Source of the DNA: Nitrosopumilaceae archaeon | GTDB lineage: Archaea > Thermoproteota > Nitrososphaeria > Nitrososphaerales > Nitrosopumilaceae | Assembly: GCA_011523285.1 (NCBI GenBank) | Contig: WTHC01000025.1 | Coordinates: 11,848 to 75,847 of the forward strand | Direction of reading: 5' to 3' | Length of the DNA stretch: 64,000 bases | Part shown: in pieces, positions 18,927 to 57,759 of the stretch | Numbering within the stretch: the stretch's first letter is position 1 | Layout of the letters: each line of letters starts with the position of its first letter | The notes under the pieces: generated by a model | The model's input: only the letters and a program-made list of their open reading frames with translations | Databases searched by the model: none | What the model was told of the DNA's origin: nothing | Position numbers and translations under genes: made by a program

Positions 18927-18927
18927 C

Positions 18928-37373: not shown

Positions 37374-38329
37374 AAAAAACAAAAATCAAATTCGCTATTC
37401 CAAAAGGAAGTTTAGAAATTTCTACGTTAGATCTACTTAAAAAATCATGGACTAAAGTTAACCATAAACATCGTACTTACAGAGTATTTTTGGATGATCC
37501 TGAAATAGAAATCAAAATGCTTCGACCTCAAGAAATACCATTATTAGTATCAGAAGGATTATATGATATAGGAATAACTGGAAAAGACTGGATTGAAGAA
37601 ACTAAAGCTAAAGTTGACACTATGCTAGATTTAGAATACGGGAAAATTAAACTAGTTGTAGCAATACCTAGTAATAATAGTTCAAATACACTAGACGATT
37701 TAATAAATGATTATTTTAATCACAAAAAAATACTTAGGTTATCTTCAGAATATTTGACCACAACAGCTAAATTTATTAAAAAATCATCATCATACAAAAA
37801 AAATTATGGTTCTGTTGATCCATTAATAATAACACCATGGATAAATTTTGGAAAAAACCAAAATGTTCAAATCCATTTATCTTTTGGTGCAACAGAAGCA
37901 AAGCCGCCAGATGATGTAGACGTCATAGTTGATGTCACAGAAACAGGTACTACACTAGAAAAAAATAACTTGAAAGTAATCCACACTGTTTTAGAATCTA
38001 GTGCACATGTCATAGCCAATAAACAATCATTATCTAATAGACTTAAACATGAAAAAATATCTGATATGTTAACACTTATGAAAGGTGCTGTTAATAGCAA
38101 TAAATATTTACATATATATCTTAACATTAAAAAAGAAAATTTATGGAAATTATTAGATAATTTACCAGCTTTAAAACAACCCACTATATCTAATCTTAGT
38201 ACCAAAAATTGGTATAGCGTAAATACAATCATACCAAAAAAAGATTTTCATAAATTAATACCTATTATTAGAAAAGTAGCTCAAGGATTAGTTATACATG
38301 AACCAAAACAGATTCTGGAATTAGAATAA
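37370..38329 (+). CDS. hisG: ATP phosphoribosyltransferase (long form with C-terminal regulatory domain)
   Basis: KFAIPKGSLE...LRPQEIPLLVSEGLYDIGITGKDW and VDVTETGTTL motifs. First gene of the his operon. Confidence 0.85.
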   Translation: MKKTKIKFAIPKGSLEISTLDLLKKSWTKVNHKHRTYRVFLDDPEIEIKMLRPQEIPLLVSEGLYDIGITGKDWIEETKAKVDTMLDLEYGKIKLVVAIPSNNSSNTLDDLINDYFNHKKILRLSSEYLTTTAKFIKKSSSYKKNYGSVDPLIITPWINFGKNQNVQIHLSFGATEAKPPDDVDVIVDVTETGTTLEKNNLKVIHTVLESSAHVIANKQSLSNRLKHEKISDMLTLMKGAVNSNKYLHIYLNIKKENLWKLLDNLPALKQPTISNLSTKNWYSVNTIIPKKDFHKLIPIIRKVAQGLVIHEPKQILELE

Positions 38330-38331
38330 AG

Positions 38332-39603
38332 ATGAGTGAAATTATGAAAATAATAAATGATTTGAAGAATATCAAAAAACCTGATTTTCTGATAGATCTA
38401 CAAACTATATCTAAAGTAAAATCAATATTATTAAATGTAAAAAAAAATGGAGATCTAGCTTTACGAAAATATGAAAAAAAATTTGGGAATGATAATATAA
38501 ATTTTAAAGTATGCGATGCTGATATAAAACAAGCTTATTCTAAAGTTTCAAAACAACAAATTGCAACTATTAAATTTATACGTGCGCGATTGACAGTAAC
38601 CGAAAAAACACTTCGAAAACAATTTCAAACCACGGTTATTAATCACAACGGAGTTAAAATTACAAAATCATTTATGCCTATCAATAATGTTGGTTGTTAT
38701 GTTCCTGGTGGACTTGCTAAATACCCAAGCTCATTATTAATGTCAGTAATCCCAGCAAAAGTTGCAGGTGTCAAAAGAATAGTTGCAGTTTCACCTCCAA
38801 ATAATGACGGTCTAATTGATCCATTAACACTAGTTGCAGCTGATATATGTGGCGTGAATGAATTTTATAAATTAGGAGGAGCTCAAGCAATCGCAGCTTT
38901 GTCTTATGGGACAGAAACTATAAAGTCTGTAGATAAAATCGTTGGTCCAGGAGGGAAATTTGTTACAATAGCAAAATCATTAATCAGTAATAACACTGCA
39001 ATAGATATGATCGCTGGACCTACAGAATTAGGAATCATAGTAGACGACACCACAAATATTAATTTTGTTGCATCTGACATAATATCTCAGGCCGAACATG
39101 ACATAAATACTACATGTTTTGTTGTTACAATGTTTACAAATGTGGCACATCTGATATCTAAAAAAATTGAAGAAAAAATTAAACATGTAAAACGTAGCAA
39201 CATAATCAAATCTAGTATTAGAAAAAACGGATTCATAATAATCTGTAAAACTGAACAAGAAATGATTGATTTGATAAATGAATTGTCTCCGGAGCATCTG
39301 GAAATCATTACCAAAAAACCTGGTCTTATAGCATCAAAAATATATGGTGCTGGACTAATTCTGATGGGTAAATATACGCCATCTTCAGCAAGTGATTATG
39401 TATTTGGTTCTAATCATATATTACCTACTAATACATTTGGTAAAACTCGTGGTTCGTTATCAGTATTAGATTTCATGAAACTTGATACTAAAATACAATC
39501 ATCAAAATCATCATTACAAAAAACATTAAAACATGTATATTCAATAGCCACTGCAGAAAATCTTCCAAATCATTATGATGCTATACGAGAAAGATTGTTA
39601 TGA
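38332..39603 (+). CDS. hisD: Histidinol dehydrogenase
   Basis: VGCYVPGG.A.YPSS, GGAQAIAALSYGT, VGPG, IAGPTEL, SQAEHD and SPEHLE motifs. Confidence 0.95.
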   Translation: MSEIMKIINDLKNIKKPDFLIDLQTISKVKSILLNVKKNGDLALRKYEKKFGNDNINFKVCDADIKQAYSKVSKQQIATIKFIRARLTVTEKTLRKQFQTTVINHNGVKITKSFMPINNVGCYVPGGLAKYPSSLLMSVIPAKVAGVKRIVAVSPPNNDGLIDPLTLVAADICGVNEFYKLGGAQAIAALSYGTETIKSVDKIVGPGGKFVTIAKSLISNNTAIDMIAGPTELGIIVDDTTNINFVASDIISQAEHDINTTCFVVTMFTNVAHLISKKIEEKIKHVKRSNIIKSSIRKNGFIIICKTEQEMIDLINELSPEHLEIITKKPGLIASKIYGAGLILMGKYTPSSASDYVFGSNHILPTNTFGKTRGSLSVLDFMKLDTKIQSSKSSLQKTLKHVYSIATAENLPNHYDAIRERLL

Positions 39604-40658
39604 ATTGGTTAGACCAAAGAATTTTAAAATTATCGAAATTAGATGTATATGAGAAATCATCATGTCAAGGACAACTTAAAATGAATTCTAACGAAAACTT
39701 TGTAATAGATAAACAATATCAACTTAATATTATAGATAAAGCAAGTAAAAATTGTGATGTGAGGGCATATCCAGAAAATCATAGCACGTTGATCAACTCT
39801 CTTTCTAAACATCATAAAATATTATCTAACAAAATCGGAATCGGAAACGGTTCTGATCAAATAATTGATCTTTTACTAGCACATCTTACATCAAAAAGAA
39901 CTAAAATACTTATCTCAGATCCAACATTCAGCTTTTTTGAGGCTAGATGTAAGTTATATTCTCTTAGAACAATCAAAGTTCCATTTTCAGATACTATGAT
40001 CTTGAATTTAGATCAATTAATTTCCAAGTTTGATGATGCAGATATGTTGTACTTAGACTCTCCAAATAATCCCACAGGGTTCCAATTTTCGAAAACAGAT
40101 CTAGATAAAATAATTAATTGTTTTGATGGGCCAGTTATAGTAGATGAGGCGTATGGTGATTTTTCAGAATATAGTGCTTTAGATTTATCTAAAAAATACC
40201 GTAATCTTATAGTTATTAAAACATTCTCCAAAGCATTTGGATTTGCAGGGTTAAGATTAGGATATTTTATAGCTAATCAAGACATAGTGAACATCTTTAT
40301 GAAATCTATTCAATATCCATACCCGATTAATTCTATTGCGTTAGAAGCAGGTAAATTACTGTTACAAAATATTAAAAGACTTTCAAATGTAATCAATTTA
40401 ATTAAAAATGAACGTAAGAAAATGATAATTAATTTACGTAAACTTAATGTGTTTGAAGTTTTTAATTCACAAGCCAATTTTGTTTTGTTTGACGCTAAAG
40501 ATGATTATCTACGAATATACACTGCACTAGCTGAACAAGGGATTTTAATAAAAAAATTAGGAAGAATAGGTCAATATCAAGGTTGTTTGAGAGTAACTAT
40601 TGGTACTAAGGACATGAATTCCAAATTTCTTCTCGCTATACGAGATCTTTTACGATGA
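39600..40658 (+). CDS. hisC: Histidinol-phosphate aminotransferase
   Basis: LKMNSNEN, SPNNPTG, VDEAY and TFSKAFGFAGLRLGY (PLP Lys). Overlaps hisD by 4 nt. Confidence 0.85.
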   Translation: MNWLDQRILKLSKLDVYEKSSCQGQLKMNSNENFVIDKQYQLNIIDKASKNCDVRAYPENHSTLINSLSKHHKILSNKIGIGNGSDQIIDLLLAHLTSKRTKILISDPTFSFFEARCKLYSLRTIKVPFSDTMILNLDQLISKFDDADMLYLDSPNNPTGFQFSKTDLDKIINCFDGPVIVDEAYGDFSEYSALDLSKKYRNLIVIKTFSKAFGFAGLRLGYFIANQDIVNIFMKSIQYPYPINSIALEAGKLLLQNIKRLSNVINLIKNERKKMIINLRKLNVFEVFNSQANFVLFDAKDDYLRIYTALAEQGILIKKLGRIGQYQGCLRVTIGTKDMNSKFLLAIRDLLR

Positions 40659-40662
40659 CGGA

Positions 40663-41655
40663 TTGATTTCAGATACACATGAAAAATTAGATGAAATTAT
40701 TAACCTAGACTCCATCATTTTTGATTGTGACGGTGTGCTTATTGATATACGCAATTCCTATGACAAAACAATCAAAGAGACTGTTAGATATGTGGTTAAC
40801 AAAATAACTAATGTAGATATAAATAATTTTGTCACAAGCACACTAATATCATCTTTTAAACGTAGTGGAGGTTTCAATAACGAAGTAGATTTATCTTATT
40901 CTATTATCATTTCCATAATAGCAGCAATTAGATTGAAAATACATTATAGAAAATTTATTTTAGATGTAGTTGAGAATTTAGATGTTAATGGCATCAGTTC
41001 AGTAGAAAATTATCTACGTAGTATTATTCATATAGATGATATGATTTCCGAATTACATTACCCATACAAAAACAATATCATATGTAATATATTTGATGAA
41101 TTATTTTATGGTTCTAAATTATATAGTATAATACTCAAAAAAACTCCTATTTTTTGTTGTGATGGTTTTATTAAAAATGATAAGATTCTTTTGACAAAGT
41201 CTTTATTGGATATACTTCAAAGAAAATTTAAAAGAAAAATTGCAATTGTGACAGGTAGGGGATTGGTATCTGCTAGATACTCACTACGAAATCTATTAAA
41301 TTATTTTGACATACAGAACTCAGTATTTTTAGATGATCTAGACAGAAGTTTCGCTAAACCAAATCCAAATACATTAATCAATTCTATCTTAGGCCTGAAA
41401 TCATCTTCTTGTTTGTATGTTGGTGATTCCATGGAAGATCTAATTATGGTTCATAGAGCTAATAAATTAGGATTTAGAGTAATTTTTTGTGGGATATTTG
41501 GGACCGATGACAATAAAGATAATAAAATAAACCTTTTCAAAAAGAAAAACGCCCATATAATATTAGAATCTATAAATCTACTTCCGAATGTATTAAATCT
41601 GGATGATGATGAAATAAAACATAATGATCAAAATGGGGAAATCTCGTACTTATGA
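40663..41655 (+). CDS. HAD-superfamily phosphatase with a large cap insertion, embedded in the his operon
   Basis: Motif I IIFDCDGVLID, motif II IAIVTGRG, motif III FAKPNP and motif IV YVGDSMEDL. It starts 4 nt after the hisC stop and overlaps the hisB ORF. Confidence 0.7.
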   Translation: MISDTHEKLDEIINLDSIIFDCDGVLIDIRNSYDKTIKETVRYVVNKITNVDINNFVTSTLISSFKRSGGFNNEVDLSYSIIISIIAAIRLKIHYRKFILDVVENLDVNGISSVENYLRSIIHIDDMISELHYPYKNNIICNIFDELFYGSKLYSIILKKTPIFCCDGFIKNDKILLTKSLLDILQRKFKRKIAIVTGRGLVSARYSLRNLLNYFDIQNSVFLDDLDRSFAKPNPNTLINSILGLKSSSCLYVGDSMEDLIMVHRANKLGFRVIFCGIFGTDDNKDNKINLFKKKNAHIILESINLLPNVLNLDDDEIKHNDQNGEISYL

Positions 41656-42220
41656 ATTAACACGTGAAACTAAAGAAACTAATATTCATATACAAACTAA
41701 TATAGATGGTACTGGAATTGCAGAAATAGATACTGGAATAAAATTCCTAGATCACATAATTGACACTTTTTGTAAACATTCGTTAGTTGATATCGCATTA
41801 AAAACGATATCCAAAGATAATATATCGCACCATTTAATAGAAGATGTTGCTATATGTATAGGTATATCTATTAATAAATCTCTTGGAGATAGATCTAACA
41901 TAGCAAGATTTGGTTTTGCTTCTATCCCTATGGATGAATCCGTAGTGGAATCTACAATTGATTTGATAGACAGAAGCTATATTAAAGTAAATTTAGATTT
42001 CAAACGAAACGTTATAGAAGACATGTATCAAGAAGACGTAATCCATTTTTTCTATTCGTTATTAAAAAATATTAATTGCTGTGCTCATACATCATTAAAA
42101 TATGGCACTAATGATCATCACATAGTAGAAGCAGCAATCAAATCATTAGCTGTAGCATTTAGATTTTCGTCTAACATAAATCAAAATATAGGAATACCTA
42201 GTACGAAGGACGTAATGTGA
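41624..42220 (+). CDS. hisB: Imidazoleglycerol-phosphate dehydratase
   Basis: RTYELTRETKETNIHIQTNIDGTG, FLDHII..F, HHLIEDV and NDHHIVEA motifs. The more likely start is ATG 41633. Confidence 0.9.
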   Translation: MIKMGKSRTYELTRETKETNIHIQTNIDGTGIAEIDTGIKFLDHIIDTFCKHSLVDIALKTISKDNISHHLIEDVAICIGISINKSLGDRSNIARFGFASIPMDESVVESTIDLIDRSYIKVNLDFKRNVIEDMYQEDVIHFFYSLLKNINCCAHTSLKYGTNDHHIVEAAIKSLAVAFRFSSNINQNIGIPSTKDVM

Positions 42221-42828
42221 TGCCTAAAATTGCAATATTTGATTATGGGGCTGGTAATATATTCAATTTACAAAAATCTATAGAAAGTATTGGTTCTGAA
42301 GTATATGTAATATCAAATTTTAATAATATTCAATTTTATGATGGACTATTTCTTCCAGGTGTTGGTAATTTTGATCCAGCAATTAAATTAATTCATAACC
42401 AACATTATAATAAATCATTTCATGATATTTTAACTCAAATACCAATATTTGGAATTTGTTTAGGGCTGGAATTGTTATTTGATAAAAGCGAAGAAGGTAA
42501 AGAACAAGGACTCCATGTGGTTGAAGGTGATGTAGTTCATTTACCTATAACAATGACTGTCCCACACATGGGCTGGAATAACATATTGATTGAAAAACAT
42601 AGCAATTTACTAGATGGAATAGATGATAACTCTTGGGTTTATTTTGCACATTCTTATATGGTAAGACCAAAAAACGATCGGATTATACAAGCTAAATTTG
42701 ATTATGGGGATAAAATTACAGCAATGATTGAACAACGTAACTTATTTGGCACTCAATTCCACCCTGAAAAATCTAGTATAACCGGAATAAAAATACTACA
42801 AAATTTTTTAAGAGAATGTAAAAAATGA
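42217..42828 (+). CDS. hisH: Imidazole glycerol phosphate synthase, glutaminase subunit
   Basis: IAIFDYGAGNIFNL, LPGVGNF, GICLG (nucleophile Cys) and QFHPEKS. Confidence 0.9.
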   Translation: MMPKIAIFDYGAGNIFNLQKSIESIGSEVYVISNFNNIQFYDGLFLPGVGNFDPAIKLIHNQHYNKSFHDILTQIPIFGICLGLELLFDKSEEGKEQGLHVVEGDVVHLPITMTVPHMGWNNILIEKHSNLLDGIDDNSWVYFAHSYMVRPKNDRIIQAKFDYGDKITAMIEQRNLFGTQFHPEKSSITGIKILQNFLRECKK

Positions 42829-43523
42829 AAATAATAGCAGCCATAGATCTGATGGGTGGGAAAGTAGTAAGATTATCGAAAGGAGATCCTCTGACTAAAA
42901 AAATTTACAGTGATAACCCATATCAAGTTGCTCAAATGTGGGAAAACCAAGGTGCAGATATGATACAATTTGTAGATCTAGATGCAGCATTGGGGTTAGG
43001 ATCAAATTTATTAACAATTAAAAATACAATTAAAAAATTACACACACCAACATTGATAGCTGGCGGATTGCGAAATGAGCAACTCATAAATGACGCATTA
43101 TCTATTTCATCATATATTATTTTAGGAACTATCCCATTCACAAATAAAAAACTATTATCTAAATTCATACATAATAAGAATCAAATTATAATATCTGTAG
43201 ATCAAGTTTCTAATAATATTGTAATAGAAGGATGGAAAAAAAATACAACTATAAAATTAATTGACGGTGTGAACAATTTCATTTCTCTAGGATTCTCTAA
43301 TTTTCTTTTAACAAACGTAGAAAAAGACGGCATGCTGCAAGGTATTGAGATACATACATTTTCTGAAATATGTAAGATAGATTCTATTAATGTATTTGCT
43401 GCTGGTGGAATTTCTAACACGAGTGATATTATGAACCTTAAAAAAATCCATGTTTATGCTGTTGTATTAGGTAAATCTCTTTATGAAGGAATATTAGATA
43501 TCTCAAGCGTAAAAAAAATATGA
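42825..43523 (+). CDS. hisA: ProFAR isomerase
   Basis: IIAAIDLMGGKVVRL, VDLDAA and AAGGIS motifs. TIM-barrel size. Confidence 0.85.
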   Translation: MKIIAAIDLMGGKVVRLSKGDPLTKKIYSDNPYQVAQMWENQGADMIQFVDLDAALGLGSNLLTIKNTIKKLHTPTLIAGGLRNEQLINDALSISSYIILGTIPFTNKKLLSKFIHNKNQIIISVDQVSNNIVIEGWKKNTTIKLIDGVNNFISLGFSNFLLTNVEKDGMLQGIEIHTFSEICKIDSINVFAAGGISNTSDIMNLKKIHVYAVVLGKSLYEGILDISSVKKI

Positions 43524-44323
43524 CACTAACAAAAAGAATAATACCATGTCTTGATGTTGATGATTATAATGTTGTTAAAGGATTAAATTTTTCATCAATT
43601 TCTAATGTTGGTAACCCTGTATTTTTAGCGAAGAAATATAATGATAGTGGTGCAGATGAATTGATTTTTTTAGATATAACCGCATCTCAAGAAAAAAGAA
43701 AAATAGTTAAACTCTTGATTGCTGAAGTTGCAAAAACTATAGATATACCATTCACTGTGGGTGGAGGCATATCTAATCTAGAGCAAGCACACGATGTTTT
43801 GCTTCATGGCGCAGACAAAATAGCTATTAATACATCTGCTGTGCAAAAACCACAACTTATAGAACAATTAATGGATGCATTTGGAAAACAATGTGTGGTT
43901 ATAGCTATAGATGCAAAACGAAATTATACTGTATCTGAAGCTAAGAATATATTTGTACATAATGGCAAAAAATTCTGGTTTGAAGTATACATATATGGTG
44001 GCAAGTATGCCACAGGGCTCGATGTAATTACTTGGGCACAAAAAGTAAAAAATTTAGGAGCTGGAGAAATATTACTAACTAGTATTGATATGGATGGAAC
44101 CAAAAACGGTTATGATCTAAATCTTACTTCGGCTGTTGTAAATAATGTTTCTGTTCCAGTTATAGCTTCAGGAGGCTGTGGTCATCCTCAACACATGTTA
44201 GATGTTTTTCAAATTTCTGATGCGTCTGCTGCCTTGGCTGCTTCTATATTTCATTATGATTCTTATTCAATCCAAAAAGTTAAAAAATTTCTTCAACACA
44301 ATAAAATAAATGTAAGATTATAA
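43520..44323 (+). CDS. hisF: Imidazole glycerol phosphate synthase, cyclase subunit
   Basis: KRIIPCLDV, GADELIFLDITAS, FTVGGGI, GADKIAINT, LLTSIDMDGT and ASGG motifs. Confidence 0.95.
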   Translation: MTLTKRIIPCLDVDDYNVVKGLNFSSISNVGNPVFLAKKYNDSGADELIFLDITASQEKRKIVKLLIAEVAKTIDIPFTVGGGISNLEQAHDVLLHGADKIAINTSAVQKPQLIEQLMDAFGKQCVVIAIDAKRNYTVSEAKNIFVHNGKKFWFEVYIYGGKYATGLDVITWAQKVKNLGAGEILLTSIDMDGTKNGYDLNLTSAVVNNVSVPVIASGGCGHPQHMLDVFQISDASAALAASIFHYDSYSIQKVKKFLQHNKINVRL

Positions 44324-44345
44324 GTATTGAACATCTAAATTTATC

Positions 44346-44675
44346 ATGTACAAAGAAATAATTGATATTAATTTCGTCAAGGGTGGTGATGGGTTGATCC
44401 CTGTAATTGTACAAGATATCGTCTCGAAAAACATCTTGACATTGGCTTATTCTAATAAGAAATCGATAATACTGACACAAAAAACTGGAAAATCGTGGTT
44501 TTGGAGCCGATCTAGAAAAAAACTTTGGATGAAAGGAGAAACATCTGGTAATGTGCAAAATGTTAAAAAAATTCTAGTAGATTGTGATTGTGACGCTGTT
44601 ATTTATTTAGTAGATACAAAAGGTCCTGCATGTCATACAAAACAAGAGACATGTTTTCATAATGAACTCAAGTAA
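44346..44675 (+). CDS. hisI: Phosphoribosyl-AMP cyclohydrolase (monofunctional, no HisE domain)
   Basis: GLIPVIVQD, SRSRKKLWMKGETSGN and DCDCDAVIYLV...GPACHT...CF motifs. 109 aa. Confidence 0.9.
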   Translation: MYKEIIDINFVKGGDGLIPVIVQDIVSKNILTLAYSNKKSIILTQKTGKSWFWSRSRKKLWMKGETSGNVQNVKKILVDCDCDAVIYLVDTKGPACHTKQETCFHNELK

Positions 44676-45119
44676 TCAGCATATTTTTTTATAATTATCA
44701 ATTTCGCTTGGAATTATTTCGTCAGTTATTTTTATTTTTAGTTCATGGTATTTTGTACCTTGCATTATTATTTTCCATTCTCCTATTAATTCACTATTAT
44801 CACAAATTTTCAAATCTTTTGATAAAACAGGTTTAAAATATTTATTAAAGCTTGATTTTTTACTCCAATTGAAATCTATATTGGAGTATATTTTATTTTT
44901 TGTTGTTATGATTAATATGCGCCCTACATCATTTTCAAGTAGAGAATCTACTGTTACAAAAACATTTTCACCTATTTTATATTTAGAATTATTGACAACA
45001 AACGGCCCAGAAGTTAATAATTTATCTTTTTCTAATACTCTATTACTATTTATCGATATTATTAATAGGAATGCTAGTGTAATACCTAATATTATTCCAA
45101 ATTTAGTAAATTTTTGCAT
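44676..45119 (-). CDS. Hypothetical N-terminally anchored/secreted protein
   Basis: N-terminal FGIILGITLAFLLIISI hydrophobic segment. The rest is beta-rich with no motif. Confidence 0.4.
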   Translation of the reverse strand: MQKFTKFGIILGITLAFLLIISINSNRVLEKDKLLTSGPFVVNNSKYKIGENVFVTVDSLLENDVGRILIITTKNKIYSNIDFNWSKKSSFNKYFKPVLSKDLKICDNSELIGEWKIIMQGTKYHELKIKITDEIIPSEIDNYKKIC

Positions 45120-45216: not shown

Positions 45217-46431
45217 ATGCAAAAAATTTTTTTGGAATGCAGAGAATGCAAAACTACGTATTCTGCAGATTTTAAATATGTCTGCGAATCTTGTTTTGGA
45301 CCTCTAGATGTTAAGTACGATACTTCATTTACCAAAAATTTATTTGAGAACAGAAATGTAGATACATATTGGAAATATTTTGAACTATTACCAATAGTAG
45401 ATAAATCCAACATAGTAGACATTGGTAGCGGATTGACACCTCTAATTAAAGCTACAAATCTTGGAGCCGAGTTGGGATTAAATAATCTATACATCAAGAA
45501 TGATTCAGTTAACACTACATTTTCATTTAAAGATAGGCCTGCTGGTGTGGCGGTATCTAAAGCCAAAGAATTTAATTTATCTACTGTTGGTTGTGCTTCT
45601 ACTGGTAATCTTGCATCTGCAACTGCTGCACATGCTGCAAAAGGTAGACTCAAATGTTTAATATTTGCACCAAAAAATATAGAGCAACCTAAAATTACAC
45701 AAGCTATTTCATATGGTGCTGAATATATAGCAATTGATGGCACATATGACGACTCCAATCGAATTGCTGCACAAATTGGAGATCAACATAAAATAGGTGT
45801 AGTGAATATAAATCTACGTTCGTATTATACTGAAGGTTCCAAAACATTAGCATTTGAAGTGGCAGATCAATTAGGGTGGGATGTACCAGATCATCTAGTC
45901 ATTCCAGTTGGAAGCGGCGCTATGTTAAATTCTATATGTAAAGGATTTGAAGAATTAGAAAATATTTCATTGTTGAAAGATACATCTAATATACATATAG
46001 CTGCAGCCCAACCATATGGATGTGCTCCTATAGTAAATGCATTCAAAAACAAAACAAATACAATAAAGCCTATAGAATACCCTGATACTATAGCTAAAAG
46101 CCTAGCTATAGGTGATCCTGGAGATGGTCGATATGTGATTAAAAGACTCTCTCAATATCATGGATATGCTGAAGATTGTAATAACAATGAAATTATAGAT
46201 TCCATTATACTACTTGCTAAAACTGAAGGTATCTTCACAGAACCTGCAGGTGGAGTTTCTATCGCAGTACTTCGTAAAATGGTTGAGAATAAAATGATCG
46301 ATAAAAACGATCAGACAATATGTTTTATAACTGGCAACGGATTAAAATCACCAGATTCATTGTTCGATATAATTCCAAAACCTAAAATAGCCCAACCAAA
46401 TATTGAAAAAATATTATCTATTATGAGGTAA
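45217..46431 (+). CDS. thrC: Threonine synthase-family PLP enzyme with an N-terminal zinc ribbon
   Basis: LECRECKTTYSADFKYVCESCFGPLDV (C4 ribbon), FSFKDRPA (PLP lysine), CASTGN and GSGA. 404 aa, the short archaeal ThrC architecture. It may instead be a ThrC-like sulfur-incorporating enzyme (see findings). Confidence 0.8.
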   Translation: MQKIFLECRECKTTYSADFKYVCESCFGPLDVKYDTSFTKNLFENRNVDTYWKYFELLPIVDKSNIVDIGSGLTPLIKATNLGAELGLNNLYIKNDSVNTTFSFKDRPAGVAVSKAKEFNLSTVGCASTGNLASATAAHAAKGRLKCLIFAPKNIEQPKITQAISYGAEYIAIDGTYDDSNRIAAQIGDQHKIGVVNINLRSYYTEGSKTLAFEVADQLGWDVPDHLVIPVGSGAMLNSICKGFEELENISLLKDTSNIHIAAAQPYGCAPIVNAFKNKTNTIKPIEYPDTIAKSLAIGDPGDGRYVIKRLSQYHGYAEDCNNNEIIDSIILLAKTEGIFTEPAGGVSIAVLRKMVENKMIDKNDQTICFITGNGLKSPDSLFDIIPKPKIAQPNIEKILSIMR

Positions 46432-46438
46432 ATTATAA

Positions 46439-47779
46439 TTGGTAAATGTAGTCTTCACAATACCGTCAGTACTGAACCAAGGCAACGGTGAAAAAAAAAT
46501 ACCCATTACTTCTGATAAACTTACATTATTAGATGCTTTTACTAAAATTTCTAATGATTTAGGCCCTGCTTTTAAAAATAGAGTTTTAAACCCAGACGGC
46601 TCTCCTAAATCTCTTATTAATGTGTATATAAATGGTAAGAACGCCCAATTTTCTAACGGCATGAATACAATTCTCAATGATGGAGATGAAGTTTATATGC
46701 TTCCTGCTGTTTCTGGAGGAGATAACTTGTCTGAAAATGAACTCACTCGATATTCCAGACAAATAATGCTAGAAAATATAGGTTATGAAGGACAATTGAA
46801 AATCAAAAATTCATCTGTATGCGTTATTGGAGTTGGTGGATTGGGAAACCCTATCGCTTCTAGATTGGCAGCTATGGGTGTAGGTAAAATAAGAATAGTG
46901 GATCGAGATGTAATCGAATTATCTAATCTTCATAGACAAACAATGTTTAATGATTGTGATATTGGCAAAATAAAAGTTGAAACTGCCAAGAATAAATTAC
47001 AAAATATTAATCCCACGATGACAATAGAAGCCCTTTCCGTTTCAATAAATGACTATAATGCATTAGATGTGATCCATGATTGCGATATAGTAATAGACGC
47101 GCTTGATAGTGTGAATGCTAGATACTCAATTAACAAAGCTTGTGTTAGATCTAACATTCCATTTGTAACTGGAGCAGCTGTTGGAACTTCTGGTCAATGC
47201 TTTACAGTAATACCAAATAAAACAGCTTGTTATTACTGTGTATTTCCTAGCTTGGATGAAAATTCTATGCCGACTTGTAGTATTGAAGGAGTACACCCAT
47301 CAATATTATCAGTCGTTGCAGGTATTGAAGTATCTGAAGCTATTAAAATAATATTGGACAAAAAACCTAATCTATTAAATAAAATCTTACATATAGATTT
47401 AGACACATTAAATTTCACACATATAAATACATTCAAAGTATCTGAATGTCCTGTCTGTGGAACTGGCAAGACTAGTGATAAAGTTATAAAAGAAAAACTC
47501 ATGATCGAAGAATTATGTGGCCGAAATGGCAAAAGGACATTCTCTATCACTCCTACTAATAGTAATTTGCATTTGGATCTAAATAAAATTGCCAAGTTGT
47601 CAACAACAAATGTATACAAGATAGAAAATCAAAGTAATTTTGGTATATCAATCCGCTCTGCAGATTTTTATATTAATATTATGCAAAGAGGTTCTGCTAT
47701 TATAACAGGAACTAAAACAGAAGATGATGCAATTTCATTATATGAAAGATTTGTTAGTAAAATAATGGTCAACAATTAA
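46439..47779 (+). CDS. Fusion protein: MoaD/ThiS-like ubiquitin-fold domain (ends ...LPAVSGG) + ThiF/MoeB/UbaA-type E1-like adenylyltransferase + ~90-aa C-terminal domain
   Basis: Residues 1-94 end in DGDEVYMLPAVSGG, the canonical MoaD C-terminus, with GG codons at 46715-46720 and no stop. It continues with LTRYSRQIML..IG..GQ..I....V.VIGVGGLG, DRDVIELSNLHRQ, CYYC...PTCSIEGV...CPVCG (E1 Zn site and loop Cys). TTG start lies 7 nt after the thrC stop. Confidence 0.8.
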   Translation: MVNVVFTIPSVLNQGNGEKKIPITSDKLTLLDAFTKISNDLGPAFKNRVLNPDGSPKSLINVYINGKNAQFSNGMNTILNDGDEVYMLPAVSGGDNLSENELTRYSRQIMLENIGYEGQLKIKNSSVCVIGVGGLGNPIASRLAAMGVGKIRIVDRDVIELSNLHRQTMFNDCDIGKIKVETAKNKLQNINPTMTIEALSVSINDYNALDVIHDCDIVIDALDSVNARYSINKACVRSNIPFVTGAAVGTSGQCFTVIPNKTACYYCVFPSLDENSMPTCSIEGVHPSILSVVAGIEVSEAIKIILDKKPNLLNKILHIDLDTLNFTHINTFKVSECPVCGTGKTSDKVIKEKLMIEELCGRNGKRTFSITPTNSNLHLDLNKIAKLSTTNVYKIENQSNFGISIRSADFYINIMQRGSAIITGTKTEDDAISLYERFVSKIMVNN

Positions 47780-48939: not shown

Positions 48940-51900
48940 ATGAATAACGAAATAATCCGTAAATTAACTAGTCTTACACTAATGACAATAATGATAGCAG
49001 GAGGACTAACATTCTCTATACCAGCAATTGTACCACAAGCAAATGCAACTAATGTTAATCTATTTGTGTCTGCAGAAAATTCGCAATTCGCGAATTATTT
49101 CGCAGGTCCAATGATTGTAGAAGTTGTAATAATTGATTCTACTATAGGCTCTACAAATACAGATGTTGGAGAACCCAATGTGACAGTAAATGGAAAGAGC
49201 TTACGTATGGCTCAAGCTACAGATGGTAATTGGTATGGTTATTTTGCAGACAAAAAACAAGCTCAAATAGCTGATGAAATACAAAGTAGTGGAGCTACTG
49301 GCAGTGGATTAGACTTTGGTGCATTTTGTAGTAACGCCACAGATATATCTAATGGTACATTCACCATTGATTTGTCTGGAAGTACAGGAATATCTGTACC
49401 TAGTGCTACTACAGGAAGCTCTCAAGGCACTGATCCAATAACAAGTGCATGTACAATCTCGCCAGGTGATACTATGAACGTATTAAGACAGGAAAAAACA
49501 TTAAATGATAATGACAATATAAGTGGTCCAGGACAAATTGATGTAAATCAAAATGCATGGCCATTTATACAGTTATATGATTTTACAGCTGGCAGTAATG
49601 TAGTTGTACAATATAACAAAGGTAACGAAGTACAAAATACTATTTTGACATTTTCATCATCATCGCAATTTGCAAGTTTGGATTTAGATAGGGCAAAATA
49701 CCCACAGGGTTCACAAGTTAATTTCACAATAACAGATCAACAATTAAATATTGATCCAACTGACATAGACTCTTGGACATTTGGTACTGAACAAAGTAAT
49801 CTGTCTACACAGTATCTGATTTTTAATAAAAATGGAGAAAATGTAGCGGATACACTTGGCGCATCTGCAAATATAAATAATTCATTAAGTGAACTAATGT
49901 TCTCTGGTAATGGTGTATTAAGTATAAATGCTGATGCACAAGGATCTGGCAATGTAATAAACATAGTAAATAATAATGATCAAATGATCATTGGCGAACA
50001 AGCTGATTCCGTCGCAACAGTAGGTGGTGCGTTGGCATCTGGAACACAACCAATAACAATCACAGAAATTGCACCAAATGCAGGTATCTTTACAAATTAT
50101 GACGAGACAAACAACGCCAATGTTGTGATAACCGAAAATGCTGATAGAGGAACATCTGCAACCATAAATTACAATGGTCCTCAAAGTGTTTTAGTTGGAT
50201 ATGGATTTGCAACAATTGATATGAATTCACCTAACGATCAATGGAGTTCAGGAGAAAAATTATCAGTTGTACTTGTAGATTCTGATGCAAATAAAAATAC
50301 TCGAGTCAACGAAACATTAAACGTAAATGATTCTAATGTATCGTTAATTCCAGCATTAAGTACAGGTGATCCATTCACACTTGGTGAATCTGGTGTAGAA
50401 AATAACACTAAAGTCAAAGCTGCATATACATCAACATCAACCATTACAAGAACAGGAAATAATAGTACAATTACAGAATTAACTGATACTGGATTAAATA
50501 CCTCAGTTATAGTACAGAAATTCAGTGAACGTGCATTGATCTCTACCAATAACATCGATTCACAAGTCGGTGGACTTGTTATAGATCTAGCCACAACAGC
50601 TGAAGAACTACGTAATTCAATACAGAATCCAAACACAGAAAAATTCAACGGTATAAATCTATTTAATTATGATATTAGTTCTATAATAGATTCAACTAAT
50701 AGTGTTGAAGTTTATTTAGTTGCTAATGCCAATGATGAAATAATAGATAATAACGTGATAGCTACACCATTGCAAGGAGTATTATTATTCAATACGAATG
50801 CACCAAAAGGATTAGTAGATCTTAGTTCTACACAATCTGGAATTCAAAACCCAGACGATGTTAATGAATTGATCTTTAGCTTAGATGATGATACATCAAT
50901 AGGCTTGTATTTCAATTTCAATGACAATGTTGAATTAAAATCAAACACAAATCCTATTGTAGCAGATTTCTTCACCTTTGGATTTAATGATGATGGTATA
51001 CAATCTAATGAAAGAATCGCAAACCAAATAATTAGATTCGAATTAACTGAAAATGGCGCTAACACAAGTACATTTGAAGGTACTGTAGAATATACAATGA
51101 TCAATCAATTGAATATTCTAAATAGCAGTACATACAATAATCTAAACACAATATCTGCAAATCCTAAGTTTATAGTAAATGAAGATTTACGTGACGACGA
51201 TGCCCCTAGAATAAATTACTATGATCTAGGTGCAGATGGTGTGTATACACAAATAGCCGATCAAAAAGAAGCTATATCACATTCAGGTATAATATCATTA
51301 GATTCTAACACGTACAAAGTAGCTGACACAGTATTAGTAACACTAGAAGATCAAGACTTAAATCAAGATAATGGCTTAATCGAGATCTATACCGTTGTAA
51401 GAAAACAAAATGATCCGGCCTTTGATACAGTGGGAACGTCTGATTTACCAGTATTAAGTTTCGGCCCATTAGGAAAACTTGTTAGCATTACTTTTGATGA
51501 CGAACTATGGGCTTCATCATCTGAAGTGATTAATGGCATGTCATGTACTGACAATGGTAATACAAATAACGATGGACTTGGATCTACAGGTTTCACATTA
51601 ATTGAAACAGGACCTTCCACAGGTATATTCGAAGGTAATTTCAAAATCCCTGAAACATATTGTGCTAGATCACAAGGAGGCAAAGTTTTGTCAGTAACTG
51701 GTACCGATATAGAAGTCAACTATTTTGATTTTAGAGACGAATCTGGAGAAATCATTGAAGTAAGTAGCGGTGCAGGAATAAGAGCACATACTGGTTCTAT
51801 AAGCTTAGACAGAACTGTGTATCCAGTACCATGGGGAGAAGTTAAAGACTTTGATAATTCAACATCATCATCACCAAATGGCCGTTCAGTATTTCCAATC

Positions 51901-54018
51901 CATGTGACTGGAATAGATGGCACATTAGATAATAGTGATAGTAATGGTAATCCATTAGCAGAAACATTAGGTAATGGTGATTTGACAATTCATGTCAGAA
52001 TCAACGATCCTGATTTCGATGTTTCATCTAGTGGTGAAGATGCAATAGAAACTGATTTGATCGGTAAAGAATACGGTCCAGTTAAAATTACTATCTCACG
52101 TGGTTCTGATGAAATGATATTAGCATATGCTGGTGGTTCTACACCTCAAACTGGTTTAATCGATGTAGATGGTAATGATATCGATGGTTCTGGAGTACTG
52201 CAACTTGGAGCAATTACAGAAATTGCACCAGATAGCGGTATTTTCGAATTAGATTTTGTTGTCAGATATACAGATGGACCAGCGTCTAGAATATGTCCAG
52301 ATACTAATGCGTATGTTGCATTAGATAATAGCATTACAACAGACTTGAATGATCCGAAAATAAGATTCGATGATGATCCAGAAGAAGGTAGTGATTTTTG
52401 TATATTACAAGGTGATATAATCACAGTAGAATATACTGATCCTACAGATGCATCAGGAGATCCAAATACTGTGACAGATTCCGCTACATTTGATTTACGT
52501 AATGGTGTACTACAATCTGATAAATCCGTCTACATAGTAGGAAGCGATCTAATCCTTACAATAATAGAACCTGACTGGGACTTAGATAATGATACTGCTG
52601 AAACATATACTTTAGATATTGTTGAATGGAGCTCTGATGCTGCAACAGTTACAATGGGCAATGCTGGTAAAAACTTAACTGCTTTTGATCCAGAACCCAC
52701 TGATTTCAGAGAGACAGGAGACAGTACAGGTATATTCCAAACAATAGTTGAAATTCCAGAAAAACTATCAGGTGATAGCTTGGAACGTGGAGAAAAGATT
52801 ACATTAGAATATACTGATTGGGGACCATCAGGCAGTGATTATGTTGGAGAAGAAGATGAAGATATTAGTATCTCTGTCTTCACATCTAATTTTGGAGCAA
52901 CAGTAGAACTTGATCAGAAAGTTTACACTTGGAATGATAAAGTCTACGTCACAATTGTTGCACCAGATCATAATTTCGATGCCAATCTAATTGATGAAAT
53001 TGGTGATTCTGACGATAATCCAATCAAAATTTCAACACGTGGAAATGATCTTAATAACTACAAGTTAGTTGAAACCGGTACTAATACAGGCATATTTACT
53101 GGAGAATTAATCCTAACAGGATTTAATTTTGATGCAGATGGTAATACAAATACCGGTGAATTTGGAACAGGTTTTGATACTAAACCAAGAACAGATGGTA
53201 CTGGACCTACAGATGGATATCTACAAGCAGATAATGATGATGGAATAACCGTTTCATTTGAATATTCTGAAGATGAAACTGTAGTTGGTTCAGCATTAGT
53301 TCGTTGGAATATAGGTGAAGTACAATGGCTTGAAGCAAGTTACCCAGCAAGTGGTAATGGTGTAGTTAGAGTAATAGATCCTGATATGAATTTGAATCCA
53401 GAAGCAGTAGATAATTTCGATGTTGACGTATGGTCTGACTCTGATTCTGGAGGCGTAGATCTTACTGTCACAGAAACTAATGAAGCTACTGGTATATTCG
53501 AAGGTACAGTATTCTTTACTACTAGTGATGAATCTTCAGGACATAGACTTCGAGTTACTGAAGGTGATACAACCACAGTAGAGTACGAAGATAATACTTT
53601 ACCAGATCCATATACTACTGCAGATGAATTAGATATCACTGCTACCACCATAATAGGTACGATAGTTCCTCCATTAGAGAGAGCTCCTGCATCTAACGCT
53701 CATATTGTTGATGCATTTGGAAACTCTTTGGACGAAGTATCTGTAGATCAACAAGTCCAAATCACTTCTGACCTAACTAATAACCAAAATCAAGAACAAC
53801 AATTTGCATATTTAGTGCAAATTCAAGATGACAATGGTGTCACCGTTTCATTAGCATGGATCACTGGTTCATTGTCTTCAGGACAAACCTTTAGCCCGGC
53901 ATTGTCATGGATACCATCTTCCACTGGAACATATACTGCAACAGCATTTGTATGGGAAAGTGTGGATAATCCTACTGCATTATCTCCAACTGTAACAGTA
54001 ACTATCAACGTGATATAA
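48940..54018 (+). CDS. Giant secreted acidic surface protein, probable S-layer protein
   Basis: 1692 aa. N-terminal signal-like segment (LTSLTLMTIMIAGGLTFSIPAIVPQANA) and no C-terminal TM. It is rich in D/E/T/S/N/G and poor in K/R, with many N-x-S/T sequons. There are repeated beta-sandwich-like modules and only six Cys after the signal peptide. It sits next to complex III genes, as I recall for the Nitrosopumilus S-layer gene. Confidence 0.75.
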   Translation: MNNEIIRKLTSLTLMTIMIAGGLTFSIPAIVPQANATNVNLFVSAENSQFANYFAGPMIVEVVIIDSTIGSTNTDVGEPNVTVNGKSLRMAQATDGNWYGYFADKKQAQIADEIQSSGATGSGLDFGAFCSNATDISNGTFTIDLSGSTGISVPSATTGSSQGTDPITSACTISPGDTMNVLRQEKTLNDNDNISGPGQIDVNQNAWPFIQLYDFTAGSNVVVQYNKGNEVQNTILTFSSSSQFASLDLDRAKYPQGSQVNFTITDQQLNIDPTDIDSWTFGTEQSNLSTQYLIFNKNGENVADTLGASANINNSLSELMFSGNGVLSINADAQGSGNVINIVNNNDQMIIGEQADSVATVGGALASGTQPITITEIAPNAGIFTNYDETNNANVVITENADRGTSATINYNGPQSVLVGYGFATIDMNSPNDQWSSGEKLSVVLVDSDANKNTRVNETLNVNDSNVSLIPALSTGDPFTLGESGVENNTKVKAAYTSTSTITRTGNNSTITELTDTGLNTSVIVQKFSERALISTNNIDSQVGGLVIDLATTAEELRNSIQNPNTEKFNGINLFNYDISSIIDSTNSVEVYLVANANDEIIDNNVIATPLQGVLLFNTNAPKGLVDLSSTQSGIQNPDDVNELIFSLDDDTSIGLYFNFNDNVELKSNTNPIVADFFTFGFNDDGIQSNERIANQIIRFELTENGANTSTFEGTVEYTMINQLNILNSSTYNNLNTISANPKFIVNEDLRDDDAPRINYYDLGADGVYTQIADQKEAISHSGIISLDSNTYKVADTVLVTLEDQDLNQDNGLIEIYTVVRKQNDPAFDTVGTSDLPVLSFGPLGKLVSITFDDELWASSSEVINGMSCTDNGNTNNDGLGSTGFTLIETGPSTGIFEGNFKIPETYCARSQGGKVLSVTGTDIEVNYFDFRDESGEIIEVSSGAGIRAHTGSISLDRTVYPVPWGEVKDFDNSTSSSPNGRSVFPIHVTGIDGTLDNSDSNGNPLAETLGNGDLTIHVRINDPDFDVSSSGEDAIETDLIGKEYGPVKITISRGSDEMILAYAGGSTPQTGLIDVDGNDIDGSGVLQLGAITEIAPDSGIFELDFVVRYTDGPASRICPDTNAYVALDNSITTDLNDPKIRFDDDPEEGSDFCILQGDIITVEYTDPTDASGDPNTVTDSATFDLRNGVLQSDKSVYIVGSDLILTIIEPDWDLDNDTAETYTLDIVEWSSDAATVTMGNAGKNLTAFDPEPTDFRETGDSTGIFQTIVEIPEKLSGDSLERGEKITLEYTDWGPSGSDYVGEEDEDISISVFTSNFGATVELDQKVYTWNDKVYVTIVAPDHNFDANLIDEIGDSDDNPIKISTRGNDLNNYKLVETGTNTGIFTGELILTGFNFDADGNTNTGEFGTGFDTKPRTDGTGPTDGYLQADNDDGITVSFEYSEDETVVGSALVRWNIGEVQWLEASYPASGNGVVRVIDPDMNLNPEAVDNFDVDVWSDSDSGGVDLTVTETNEATGIFEGTVFFTTSDESSGHRLRVTEGDTTTVEYEDNTLPDPYTTADELDITATTIIGTIVPPLERAPASNAHIVDAFGNSLDEVSVDQQVQITSDLTNNQNQEQQFAYLVQIQDDNGVTVSLAWITGSLSSGQTFSPALSWIPSSTGTYTATAFVWESVDNPTALSPTVTVTINVI
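51292..53598 (+). repeat. Tandem array of divergent ~95-220-aa protein modules inside the surface-protein gene
   Basis: Five consecutive modules share the pattern [S/L/E]-x-D/E-x-x-x-Y ... [V/I]-x-[D/E]-P-D-x-[D/N]-x-[D/N] ... E-T-G/N-x-x-T/S-G-I-F ... I-T-V-E-Y-x-D. GIF motifs lie at residues 895, 1100, 1264, 1384 and 1518. Further copies lie upstream at 382 and, degenerate, at ~710. Confidence 0.7.
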
Positions 54019-55241: not shown

Positions 55242-55868
55242 GTGAGCTACATGACAAATAGTGATAATAATAATAAAAATGAAGATAAATCATTATCACG
55301 TAGAGATTTTTTGAAACTTTTAGGTGCAGCTGGAACTGCTTTGGCATTTACGCCTTTTGTACCTTGGGGTAATTATATGCCCAACCCATCAGCGGCAAAT
55401 TTAGAAAAAGTTAAAGTTATTCTTCCAGACGGTACACAAGCTAATGTTAATACTTTCCCAATAAACCATGCTGAGGTTATTACTTATCCAAGTACTGGTG
55501 ATAGAGTTTTAGATGAAGAAGCTTTTAGAAAGTGGCAATTTATAAGATTACCAAAGAAATTAGGTGGAGAAAAAAATGATGTAAGTTCATTTAGAGCATA
55601 TAGTATGGTATGTCTTCATTTATGGTGTTTGTGGAAATATTGGCCTGAAGAAGGACGTATGAGAGGAGAATGCCCTTGTCATGGAAGTATGTATGATCCA
55701 ATGACTGGTAAAGCATTTGCTGGACCTGCCTCTCTACAAGCAGCTCCATCTAACACACTGGCAAAATTAGATTTAGAAGCTGATAATGATGGTTTTCTAT
55801 GGATATTGCCACCTGAATGGGGCGTTAATAACAATGGAGTAGTTGGATATGGCCGTTTCATTAAGTAG
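55242..55868 (+). CDS. Rieske [2Fe-2S] protein with a twin-arginine signal
   Basis: SRRDFLKLLGAAGTALA (Tat motif) plus CLHLWC and CPCHGS Rieske boxes. Confidence 0.9.
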   Translation: MSYMTNSDNNNKNEDKSLSRRDFLKLLGAAGTALAFTPFVPWGNYMPNPSAANLEKVKVILPDGTQANVNTFPINHAEVITYPSTGDRVLDEEAFRKWQFIRLPKKLGGEKNDVSSFRAYSMVCLHLWCLWKYWPEEGRMRGECPCHGSMYDPMTGKAFAGPASLQAAPSNTLAKLDLEADNDGFLWILPPEWGVNNNGVVGYGRFIK

Positions 55869-57240: not shown

Positions 57241-57243
57241 TCT

Positions 57244-57759
57244 GTGTTTCCAAAAATTAAAATTTATAAGACTATCATACAGTATAATGACAGATTGAGT
57301 TCTGTTGTTACTAACCATGCTTACGGTATAGGTGTTGTGTCTATAGTAATAGGATTGTCTTTTGGACTACTTTATTATCAGATGTACTATCTTCCTGAAT
57401 CTCTTGCTAAACCAACAGTTTCACATGAGATATTAGAACCTGTTAAAAACACGATAATTGAAATGATTGTTGGTTCTTCTAGTCCTGAACAACAAGATAA
57501 TTTTGTACCAAAATTGGTTAACATCCAACTTGGTATAGATAATCATACAATCTGGAATAATGTAGACGATACTCCGCATACAGTAACTCCAGATCATCGA
57601 GAATCTGATTCTTACAGTGGGGAATTTGGATCTAGTGGAGTAATAAAACCTGGCGACTCGTATGAATTCATATTTACTGAAGAACATGAATTTGAATACC
57701 ATTGTGACCCGCATCCATGGATGACTGGCAAAGTCATAGTTACGAAACAAAGATTTTAA
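57244..57759 (+). CDS. Membrane-anchored type 1 (blue) copper protein, plastocyanin/amicyanin-like
   Basis: N-terminal TM (GIGVVSIVIGLSFGLLYY). Copper ligands are HTVT ... YHCDPHPWMTGKV (C-x2-H-x2-M). Confidence 0.85.
   Translation: MFPKIKIYKTIIQYNDRLSSVVTNHAYGIGVVSIVIGLSFGLLYYQMYYLPESLAKPTVSHEILEPVKNTIIEMIVGSSSPEQQDNFVPKLVNIQLGIDNHTIWNNVDDTPHTVTPDHRESDSYSGEFGSSGVIKPGDSYEFIFTEEHEFEYHCDPHPWMTGKVIVTKQRF

Follow-up and report, generated by a model that had tools for sequence, protein, structure and literature searches.

A ThrC-family enzyme and a carrier-E1 fusion in a Nitrosopumilaceae archaeon as a probable homocysteine synthase system of the MetM/MetO type

In the CysO/CysM/MoeZ/Mec system of Mycobacterium tuberculosis and the HcyS/HcyF/HcyD/MetY system of Wolinella succinogenes, the thiocarboxylate of a ubiquitin-like carrier protein (Ubl), which is made by an E1-type activating enzyme, donates its sulfur to an enzyme that depends on pyridoxal phosphate (PLP). 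The HcyS precursor is trimmed by a JAMM protease to expose its Gly-Gly end, which is a precedent for the processing of such carriers. A further system of this kind, MetM/MetO, is known from Streptomyces albulus, in which, according to PMC12172450, metM has an upstream S-adenosylmethionine (SAM) riboswitch and is followed by metO. In this study, we analysed a 64,000-nt stretch of DNA, hereafter the window, from a Nitrosopumilaceae archaeon (assembly GCA_011523285.1, contig WTHC01000025.1, positions 11,848 to 75,847 of the forward strand), in which a gene for a 404-aa PLP enzyme of the ThrC family (ORF1, 45217-46431, + strand) is followed by a gene for a 446-aa protein with a TTG start (ORF2, 46439-47779, + strand) that joins a Ubl domain, an E1 domain and a TBP-like domain. 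We consider it likely that the pair is a MetM/MetO-type thiocarboxylate-dependent homocysteine synthase system, the carrier of which is made within its own E1. An earlier note, based on the letters of the window, had already suggested a protein-thiocarboxylate system of the MetM/MetO kind that possibly leads to homocysteine; clade membership, synteny, the riboswitches of bacterial relatives and the motifs support this suggestion, and we infer the chemistry from them. Its account of MetM/MetO was correct, as judged by the summary of Hasebe et al. (2024, Appl Environ Microbiol 90:e01247-24) in bioRxiv 10.1101/2024.10.14.618325.

Compared with MetM/MetO, which acts together with MoeZ and Mec, the pair shows the same order of a ThrC-homologous PLP enzyme and a MoaD-type Gly-Gly carrier; an E1 would be needed to form the thiocarboxylate, ThrB would supply O-phosphohomoserine as the substrate, and the SAM riboswitch is shared by bacterial members of the clade to which ORF1 belongs. 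The window differs in that the carrier forms the N-terminus of its own E1 rather than ending at Gly-Gly, in that there is neither a Mec/JAMM gene nearby nor a riboswitch, in that the enzyme has the archaeal motifs KDRP and EPAGG, and in that the E1 has a TBP-like C-terminus instead of the MoeZ-type rhodanese domain. CysO/CysM and HcyS/MetY differ from the pair in their enzymes, which belong to the cysteine synthase and O-acetylhomoserine sulfhydrylase families and use other substrates, and in their carriers, which are encoded by separate genes. Among the archaeal UbaA/SAMP systems, the same fusion is already on record: in 2010, Makarova and Koonin listed 'Ubl-E1-TBP in Thaumarchaeota' with no function given and found no strong functional link for it (PMC2948915). 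Threonine synthase is not mentioned in that paper, though its Table S2 shows an arCOG01434 neighbour; in Nitrosopumilus maritimus, a 404-aa arCOG01434 protein, a 443-aa fusion and a 1734-aa protein adjoin in this order. Our literature search, which covered sources other than the primary MetM report, found no paper that assigns the pathway to Thaumarchaeota, and GapMind 2026 covers both N. maritimus and the MetM/MetO pathway without discussing them together.

The proposal that the product of 45217-46431 is an O-phosphohomoserine-dependent homocysteine synthase begins with the features of ORF1. It was matched by the PALP profile (E 1.4e-65), and its motif FSFKDRPA contains the predicted PLP-binding lysine, K105 (codon 45529-45531, + strand; SFKDRP), which aligns with K61 of the Thermus ThrC. 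The cysteines C8, C11, C23 and C26 (CxxC...CxxC), which are invariant in the family alignment, form an N-terminal zinc ribbon (45238-45294, + strand). This segment is absent from the solved canonical ThrCs, the alignment of which to ORF1 begins at residue 53. The 404-aa ThrC-family enzyme with a zinc ribbon and FSFKDRPA that the earlier note had described was therefore recovered by the PALP and TIGR00260 matches and by the alignment, and both ORFs, the second beginning 7 nt past the first, were confirmed to the base.

ORF1 was aligned with four solved bacterial ThrCs (PDB 6cgq, 2zsj, 2d1f and 1uim; E 2.5e-63 to 3.8e-47) and with its family. It shares the fold family, the PLP-lysine motif and probably the substrate with these enzymes, but differs from them by the additional zinc ribbon, by four replaced positions and by its placement in a separate clade. 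The solved ThrCs have KDRG after the PLP lysine, whereas the window and its clade have KDR[PV]; STGNT is replaced by STGNL in the STGN loop, VNSVNPxRxEGQKT by VNINxRxYYxEGSKT in the central loop, PVGNAGN by P[VIL][GA]SG in the glycine-rich loop and EPASAAS by E[PT]AGG in the C-terminal loop. At single positions, Thermus T88 corresponds to L132 in ORF1, N188 to S233, R160 to Y and S155 to N (I at a gapped column), with NSVNPxR of the solved ThrCs reading NINLRSY, and leucine stands at the T88 position in 77 of 78 locus sequences. Thermus T88, S155, R160 and N188 presumably form the site for the substrate phosphate that also steers the addition of water; work by Omi in 2003 and Murakawa in 2011 is said to have described these roles.

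Scanning one genome per GTDB species with the family alignment gave 80 loci. Eleven of them come from Nitrososphaeria (Nitrosarchaeum, Nitrosotenuis, Nitrosotalea, Nitrososphaera and others), with enzymes 61-71% identical to ORF1, and three from Bathyarchaeia (51-55%), which are the closest relatives outside Nitrososphaeria; the remaining loci, at 42-50% identity, belong to cyanobacteria, Acidimicrobiia, Actinomycetes, Chloroflexota, Nitrospinota, Nitrospirota, Planctomycetota and Methylomirabilota. In a neighbour-joining tree, ORF1 fell inside a clade of 122 sequences, with five canonical ThrCs (the four solved ones and L027b) outside. It grouped with ten other sequences from ammonia-oxidising archaea (AOA) and next with Bathyarchaeia, and the four solved ThrCs formed a clade of their own, so that the comparison with canonical ThrCs that the earlier note had called for places ORF1 outside them. 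The motif pattern partitions the family in the same way, independently of the tree. Judging from motifs and tree, ORF1 is not a canonical threonine synthase but what looks like a clade-distinct ThrC homologue. Within the clade, the archaeal members have KDRP and EPAGG versus KDRV and ETAGG in the bacterial ones, and STGNL, RxYYxEGSKT and GSG/ASG are common to both.

Two further observations concern the family as a whole. In a Thermodesulfovibrio metagenome-assembled genome (L027, 148-3101), the genes for a MetM-like enzyme, for a Ubl and for a second ThrC of canonical signature stand in a row, which by their motifs is a natural side-by-side case of the two paralogues. Zinc-ribbon ThrC-family proteins (P0260, P0275, P0300, P0305 and P0337, as well as P0283 and P0284) carry a C-terminal PadR (winged-helix) or LeuA_dimer (allosteric) domain, and the motif of many such representatives at the T88/N188 positions is neither the canonical one nor that of the MetM type, which suggests further uncharacterised subfamilies. 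Fusions of ThrC with ThiS/MoaD were also sought among the long family representatives, but the extra domains were PadR or LeuA_dimer and not Ubl.

The pairing of the enzyme with a carrier was assessed by searching all of the ORFs of the 80 loci with hidden Markov models made from the Ubl, E1 and C-terminal parts of ORF2. In 73 loci, which represent seven or more phyla, the enzyme is directly followed by a Ubl of approximately 91 aa that ends in Gly-Gly. The C-terminal consensus of this Ubl is [IVL][IVL]PA[VI][AS]GG, usually with the stop codon next, and the PAVSGG of the window is the same motif. Seven loci do not show this arrangement; in at least four of them the contig stops at or near the enzyme, and one, L012, does contain the beginning of the fusion. 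The pair was also found on 13 metagenome contigs that encode the identical fusion protein, and it is present in 10 of the 11 thaumarchaeal genomes sampled; because of this recurrence, the pairing is not a chance juxtaposition. Conservation of the adjacency across Nitrosopumilales, which had been proposed as a check, thus extends far beyond that order. The window Ubl aligns end to end with free Ubls that stop at Gly-Gly, both from Bathyarchaeum (36% identity, E 1e-20) and from Nonomuraea (29% identity, E 3e-16).

When 25 bacterial loci were scanned with Rfam, 18 of them had a SAM riboswitch (RF00162, 51-82 bits) upstream of the enzyme, its end lying no more than approximately 100 nt from the start of the latter; they include 17 of the 18 Actinomycetota loci scanned and the one locus from Planctomycetota. 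The layout of riboswitch, enzyme and Ubl is that reported for Streptomyces metM-metO. It is also found in the cultured actinomycete Nonomuraea gerenzanensis, in which a SAM riboswitch precedes an enzyme that is 45% identical to ORF1 and a 91-aa Ubl ending in IIPAVAGG; a second ThrC-family match, uncharacterised, was obtained with tblastn in the Nonomuraea record. Homocysteine had been one of several thiols considered in the earlier note, and the riboswitches upstream of the bacterial clade members point to methionine and not to cysteine. In the window, no Rfam riboswitch was found and SAM-responsive control was therefore not seen, which is expected because the host is an archaeon.

The second gene, ORF2, is separated from ORF1 by an operon-like gap of 7 nt (46432-46438, + strand). 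Residues 1-94 form a MetO-like Ubl domain of the MoaD/SAMP type (46439-46720, + strand), which was matched by PF02597 (ThiS/MoaD beta-grasp; 32.8 bits, cutoff 22.5) and by SAMP1 (E 4.8e-13) and which closes with LPAVSGG at residue 94. A short linker (residues 95-104; 46721-46750, + strand), the length of which is 10-11 aa in 120 of 120 relatives, leads from Gly-Gly to the N-terminal helix of the E1 with its Arg finger in RYSRQ. The ThiF/MoeB-type adenylation domain itself (residues 105-338; 46751-47452, + strand) was matched by PF00899 (E 3.5e-75) and by MoeB (1jw9, E 2.8e-44). Its invariant features include GVGGLG (GxGxxG), RYSRQ and the CxxC pairs C264/C267 and C337/C340 of the zinc site, and Cys280 in a loop (MPTCS) is conserved; with the nucleotide loop, the Arg-finger helix and the zinc site of two CxxC pairs, ORF2 has the hallmarks of the MoeB/ThiF/UbaA E1 family (arCOG01676). 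Both elements of the earlier description, a MoaD/ThiS-like domain ending in LPAVSGG joined to ThiF/MoeB and an E1 with an intact zinc site and loop cysteine, therefore hold, by PF02597 and PF00899 and by conservation in the relatives.

The C-terminal part of ORF2 had been overlooked. The segment 47492-47779 (+ strand; residues ~350-446, approximately 95 residues) contains an ELCGR motif that is invariant, one TBP-like domain and then the stop; the profile of this region matches archaeal TBP (E 1.2e-6), and PF00352 scores 26.2 bits on the domain alone. Such a TBP-like C-terminus, which is typical of archaeal E1s, and the CGR motif were also seen in the E1s beside clade members in L020, L026, L084 and L032, which are archaeal and in some cases bacterial. 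Domain searches detected no rhodanese domain in the E1 of ORF2, and the CGR cysteine might carry the persulfide in E1s that are without one. An AlphaFold2 model of the fusion, based on 17 close homologues, had a mean pLDDT of 59.7, with the linker and half of the E1 below 50, and was not used.

The origin of the fusion can be read from Bathyarchaeia (L020 and L026), in which the enzyme, the Ubl and the E1-TBP are encoded by three consecutive genes. Order and motifs are the same as in the window, with the enzymes 51-55% identical, the Ubls 36% and the E1s 44% (residues 96-435 of ORF2 against the Bathyarchaeum E1), but the Ubl has its own stop after Gly-Gly and the E1-TBP gene its own start 6-15 nt past the Ubl. 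Because Bathyarchaeia keep these parts as adjacent genes, Thaumarchaeota have fused two neighbours by loss of the stop codon. PAV[AS]GG is kept in 120 of the 120 listed Nitrosopumilaceae fusion homologues, where it is followed by the linker of 10-11 residues to [YF]SRQ, and Gly-Gly is also kept in more distant AOA fusions, the linkers of which are longer or different. The invariance of Gly-Gly within a polypeptide the linker of which drifts argues that its carboxylate is still needed and that the carrier would thus be cut free, and the junction after G94 is the proposed cleavage point. Translation of the E1 from an internal start was considered and rejected: the window has GGAGGA-N6-TTG, which resembles a Shine-Dalgarno sequence and a start, but the Leu codon there is CTA, CTC, CTT, TTA or CTG in relatives, and no conserved internal start codon follows Gly-Gly in them.

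An alternative in which the proposed pathway operates while the Ubl stays fused throughout and serves in cis for docking or regulation, with sulfur arriving as sulfide, as an E1 persulfide or via a separate free carrier, seems unlikely to us. It would agree with the lack of a JAB/JAMM gene both in the 64-kb window and beside the archaeal loci, which leaves the cleavage unsupported by context, with the lack of an internal start or stop codon that would give separate products, and with the argument of Iyer et al. (2006) that some ThiF-fused Ubls differ in role from the free carrier (PMC1779556). However, the invariance of PAV[AS]GG in all of the listed fusions beside a varying linker would not be expected unless the carboxylate of Gly-Gly is in use, and the fused domain runs collinear with free carriers whose last residues are exactly this Gly-Gly. 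Moreover, N. maritimus has no other free MoaD/ThiS gene, since its only other Ubl is fused to Cgi121, and it has two JAB proteases that could act in trans (PMC2948915). In a separate observation, a Nitrospirota locus (L030, 5113-9250) encodes an E1, a MetM-like enzyme, a Ubl with one residue after Gly-Gly, a second E1 and a 185-aa ORF with the JAMM-like motif HSHxxxxxxxSxxD; if this assignment, made by motif only, is right, L030 would combine all of the genes for carrier processing in a single cluster.

The gene content of the lineage was taken from published accounts. N. maritimus and Cenarchaeum symbiosum each have a single E1, no ThiS, no molybdopterin genes, two JAB proteases and 3-5 rhodaneses, and their MoaD-type Ubl domains are two in number, in this fusion and in the Cgi121 fusion (PMC2948915, with the gene counts in Table S1). 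Molybdopterin and ThiS-type thiamine synthesis are thereby removed as explanations, and the possibility raised earlier that the Ubl-E1 serves only molybdopterin fails. The JAB proteases and rhodaneses of these relatives are candidates for the protease and the sulfur donor in trans. Because the fusion contains the only E1 of the sequenced relatives, tRNA thiolation may be a second client of the E1 and the carrier. The tables of the AOA reconstruction by Abby et al. (2020), in the sections on these pathways, list thrA, asd, hom, thrB and a multicopy thrC (arCOG01434) (PMC7554672). O-Phosphohomoserine is thus available in AOA, since thrB is listed, and a second ThrC-family copy probably covers threonine; the multicopy listing also counters the objection that ORF1 might be the only ThrC. 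The methionine section has only metH, metE, metF, metK, MAT, ahcY and salvage genes, and neither a homoserine acyltransferase nor a sulfhydrylase, a cystathionine enzyme or any other homocysteine-forming enzyme appears in these tables.

These lists also bear on whether the same machinery could make another product, i.e., cysteine or another thiol from O-phosphoserine or another substrate, as CysM does with CysO, which we regard as highly improbable. On the archaeal side there is no riboswitch evidence, the archaeal subclade differs from the bacterial members at KDRP versus KDRV and EPAGG versus ETAGG, and another offshoot of the ThrC family is cysteate synthase, all of which would suit such a reading. 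The archaeal and bacterial members nevertheless share the diagnostic STGNL, RxYYxEGSKT and GSG/ASG, and the sections of the AOA reconstruction cited above list two cysM-type cysteine synthases beside the missing homocysteine-forming enzyme (PMC7554672).

It could also be proposed that ORF1 is a plain threonine synthase and that the Ubl and E1 beside it have housekeeping roles in tRNA 2-thiolation and/or SAMP-type conjugation, the adjacency being metabolically meaningless. We consider this very unlikely: enzyme and Ubl stay neighbours in both bacteria and archaea amid unrelated flanking genes, the bacterial operons are controlled by SAM riboswitches, and residues that we take to form the canonical phosphate site are replaced. 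A canonical ThrC coexists with the clade member in L027, PMC12172450 gives two ThrC copies for cyanobacteria, and the second match in Nonomuraea and the multicopy thrC of AOA also count against this proposal. In its favour, the only E1 of N. maritimus and C. symbiosum probably serves other E1 needs as well, and the 2010 survey, as mentioned, saw no strong functional link for it.

Other points in favour of a plain threonine synthase weigh at the same time against the MetM/MetO-type assignment. ORF1 passes the cutoff of TIGR00260 thrC (275.8 bits versus 167.1); it stays below the cutoff of each of the six other listed threonine-synthase NCBIfam equivalog models, and according to GapMind 2026, MetM is frequently misannotated as ThrC. 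The studied cyanobacterial (Microcystis) clade member, which is 51.6% identical to MetM and has a neighbour that is 47% identical to MetO, was a threonine synthase and deaminase in vitro, and its authors saw no evidence of a MetM function in vivo (PMC12172450). To these must be added the context-free cleavage step and several features of the comparison itself. S. albulus MetM was compared by its description, the link being made via the structure of cyanobacterial and actinobacterial operons, and a homologue search from an acidimicrobial clade member returned no Streptomyces entry; the substrate and product of the archaeal members are assigned by clade membership. The tree is a single neighbour-joining tree from a fast alignment and carries no support values, and a second, canonical ThrC in this genome is presumed from the AOA-wide multicopy listing. 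In addition, the roles given here to the four phosphate-site positions are presumed ones.

According to the MetM/MetO-type reading that we prefer, the 446-aa product would be a polyprotein that is cut after Gly94, most plausibly by a JAB/JAMM metalloprotease encoded elsewhere, which would yield two products, an E1-TBP enzyme and a MetO-like carrier of 94 aa that ends in Gly-Gly. As the E1 family suggests, the E1 would adenylate the C-terminal glycine of the carrier with ATP, and a persulfide donor, a rhodanese or cysteine desulfurase acting in trans, would turn the acyl-adenylate into a thiocarboxylate, possibly by transfer via Cys280 or the CGR cysteine. The zinc-ribbon PLP enzyme would bind O-phospho-L-homoserine made by ThrB and eliminate phosphate, after which the carrier thiocarboxylate, and not water at C-beta, would be added at C-gamma, giving homocysteine once it is freed from the carrier. 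MetH or MetE would then convert homocysteine to methionine, and tRNA thiolation may be supplied by this E1 and carrier as well. More tentatively, and with a good deal of doubt, it can be imagined that a single polyprotein provides AOA cells with their only E1 and also with their only releasable carrier, and that obligatory proteolytic release of the carrier then gates the flow of sulfur into methionine and perhaps into tRNA thiolation, with the release possibly being regulated or assisted by the E1.

The window has a G+C content of approximately 30%, and marine metagenome contigs, the longest of 843 kb, encode near-identical proteins, the named relatives being Nitrosopumilus, Nitrosarchaeum and 'Thaumarchaeota archaeon'. 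Downstream of the pair lie a phosphoglucose/phosphomannose isomerase gene and a gene for a 1692-aa S-layer-like protein (48940-54018, + strand), which has no Pfam match and resembles an anammox S-layer glycoprotein family only weakly. Its position is that of the 1734-aa protein that adjoins the fusion in N. maritimus, which we take to be the S-layer protein Nmar_1547, and the product of 48940-54018 is probably an S-layer protein. Upstream, a complete his operon (hisG-D-C-HAD-B-H-A-F-I) occupies 37370-44675. The 330-aa HAD-family hydrolase that is encoded between hisC and hisB (40663-41655, + strand) has its best match to TIGR01548, below the cutoff; because hisN (histidinol-phosphatase) is left blank in the histidine section of the curated AOA reconstruction (PMC7554672), it is a candidate enzyme for that step. 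A 147-aa ORF (44676-45119, - strand), which has a hydrophobic N-terminus and no family match, separates hisI from the enzyme; on the longer contigs that were examined (L001-L004), it is found at the corresponding position. The his genes adjoin the enzyme/Ubl/E1 cluster in the window, in Nitrososphaera (L018, 5492-5818) and, on the opposite strand, in Bathyarchaeum (L020, 8644-13176); this synteny is old, and no functional reason for it is apparent. Elsewhere in the window, a Rieske/cytochrome b/plastocyanin-like cluster (55242-57759, + strand) and genes for the cobalamin lower ligand and assembly (CobD, CobS and CbiA-like; 17011-21219, + strand) were found, the latter of which would be consistent with a methionine synthase that depends on B12 and acts after the proposed pathway. 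Scans for sigma-70 promoters and terminators around the pair gave matches at chance level only.

AOA count among the most numerous microbes of the ocean and soil and grow without added amino acids. If the proposed assignment is true, it would fill a gap in these archaea, for which methionine synthase but no homocysteine-forming enzyme is listed in the tables of the reconstruction (PMC7554672), and a gene that is systematically misannotated in Nitrososphaeria, Bathyarchaeia and many bacteria would be named correctly. The assignment would also give a function to a fusion protein that has been on record since 2010 and make the Streptomyces pathway of 2024 a phylogenetically widespread one. The carrier-E1 polyprotein raises the mechanistic question of which protease cuts after Gly-Gly, and, should carrier release indeed act as a gate, the release from the polyprotein would be a prokaryotic counterpart of ubiquitin-precursor processing that is tied to primary metabolism.

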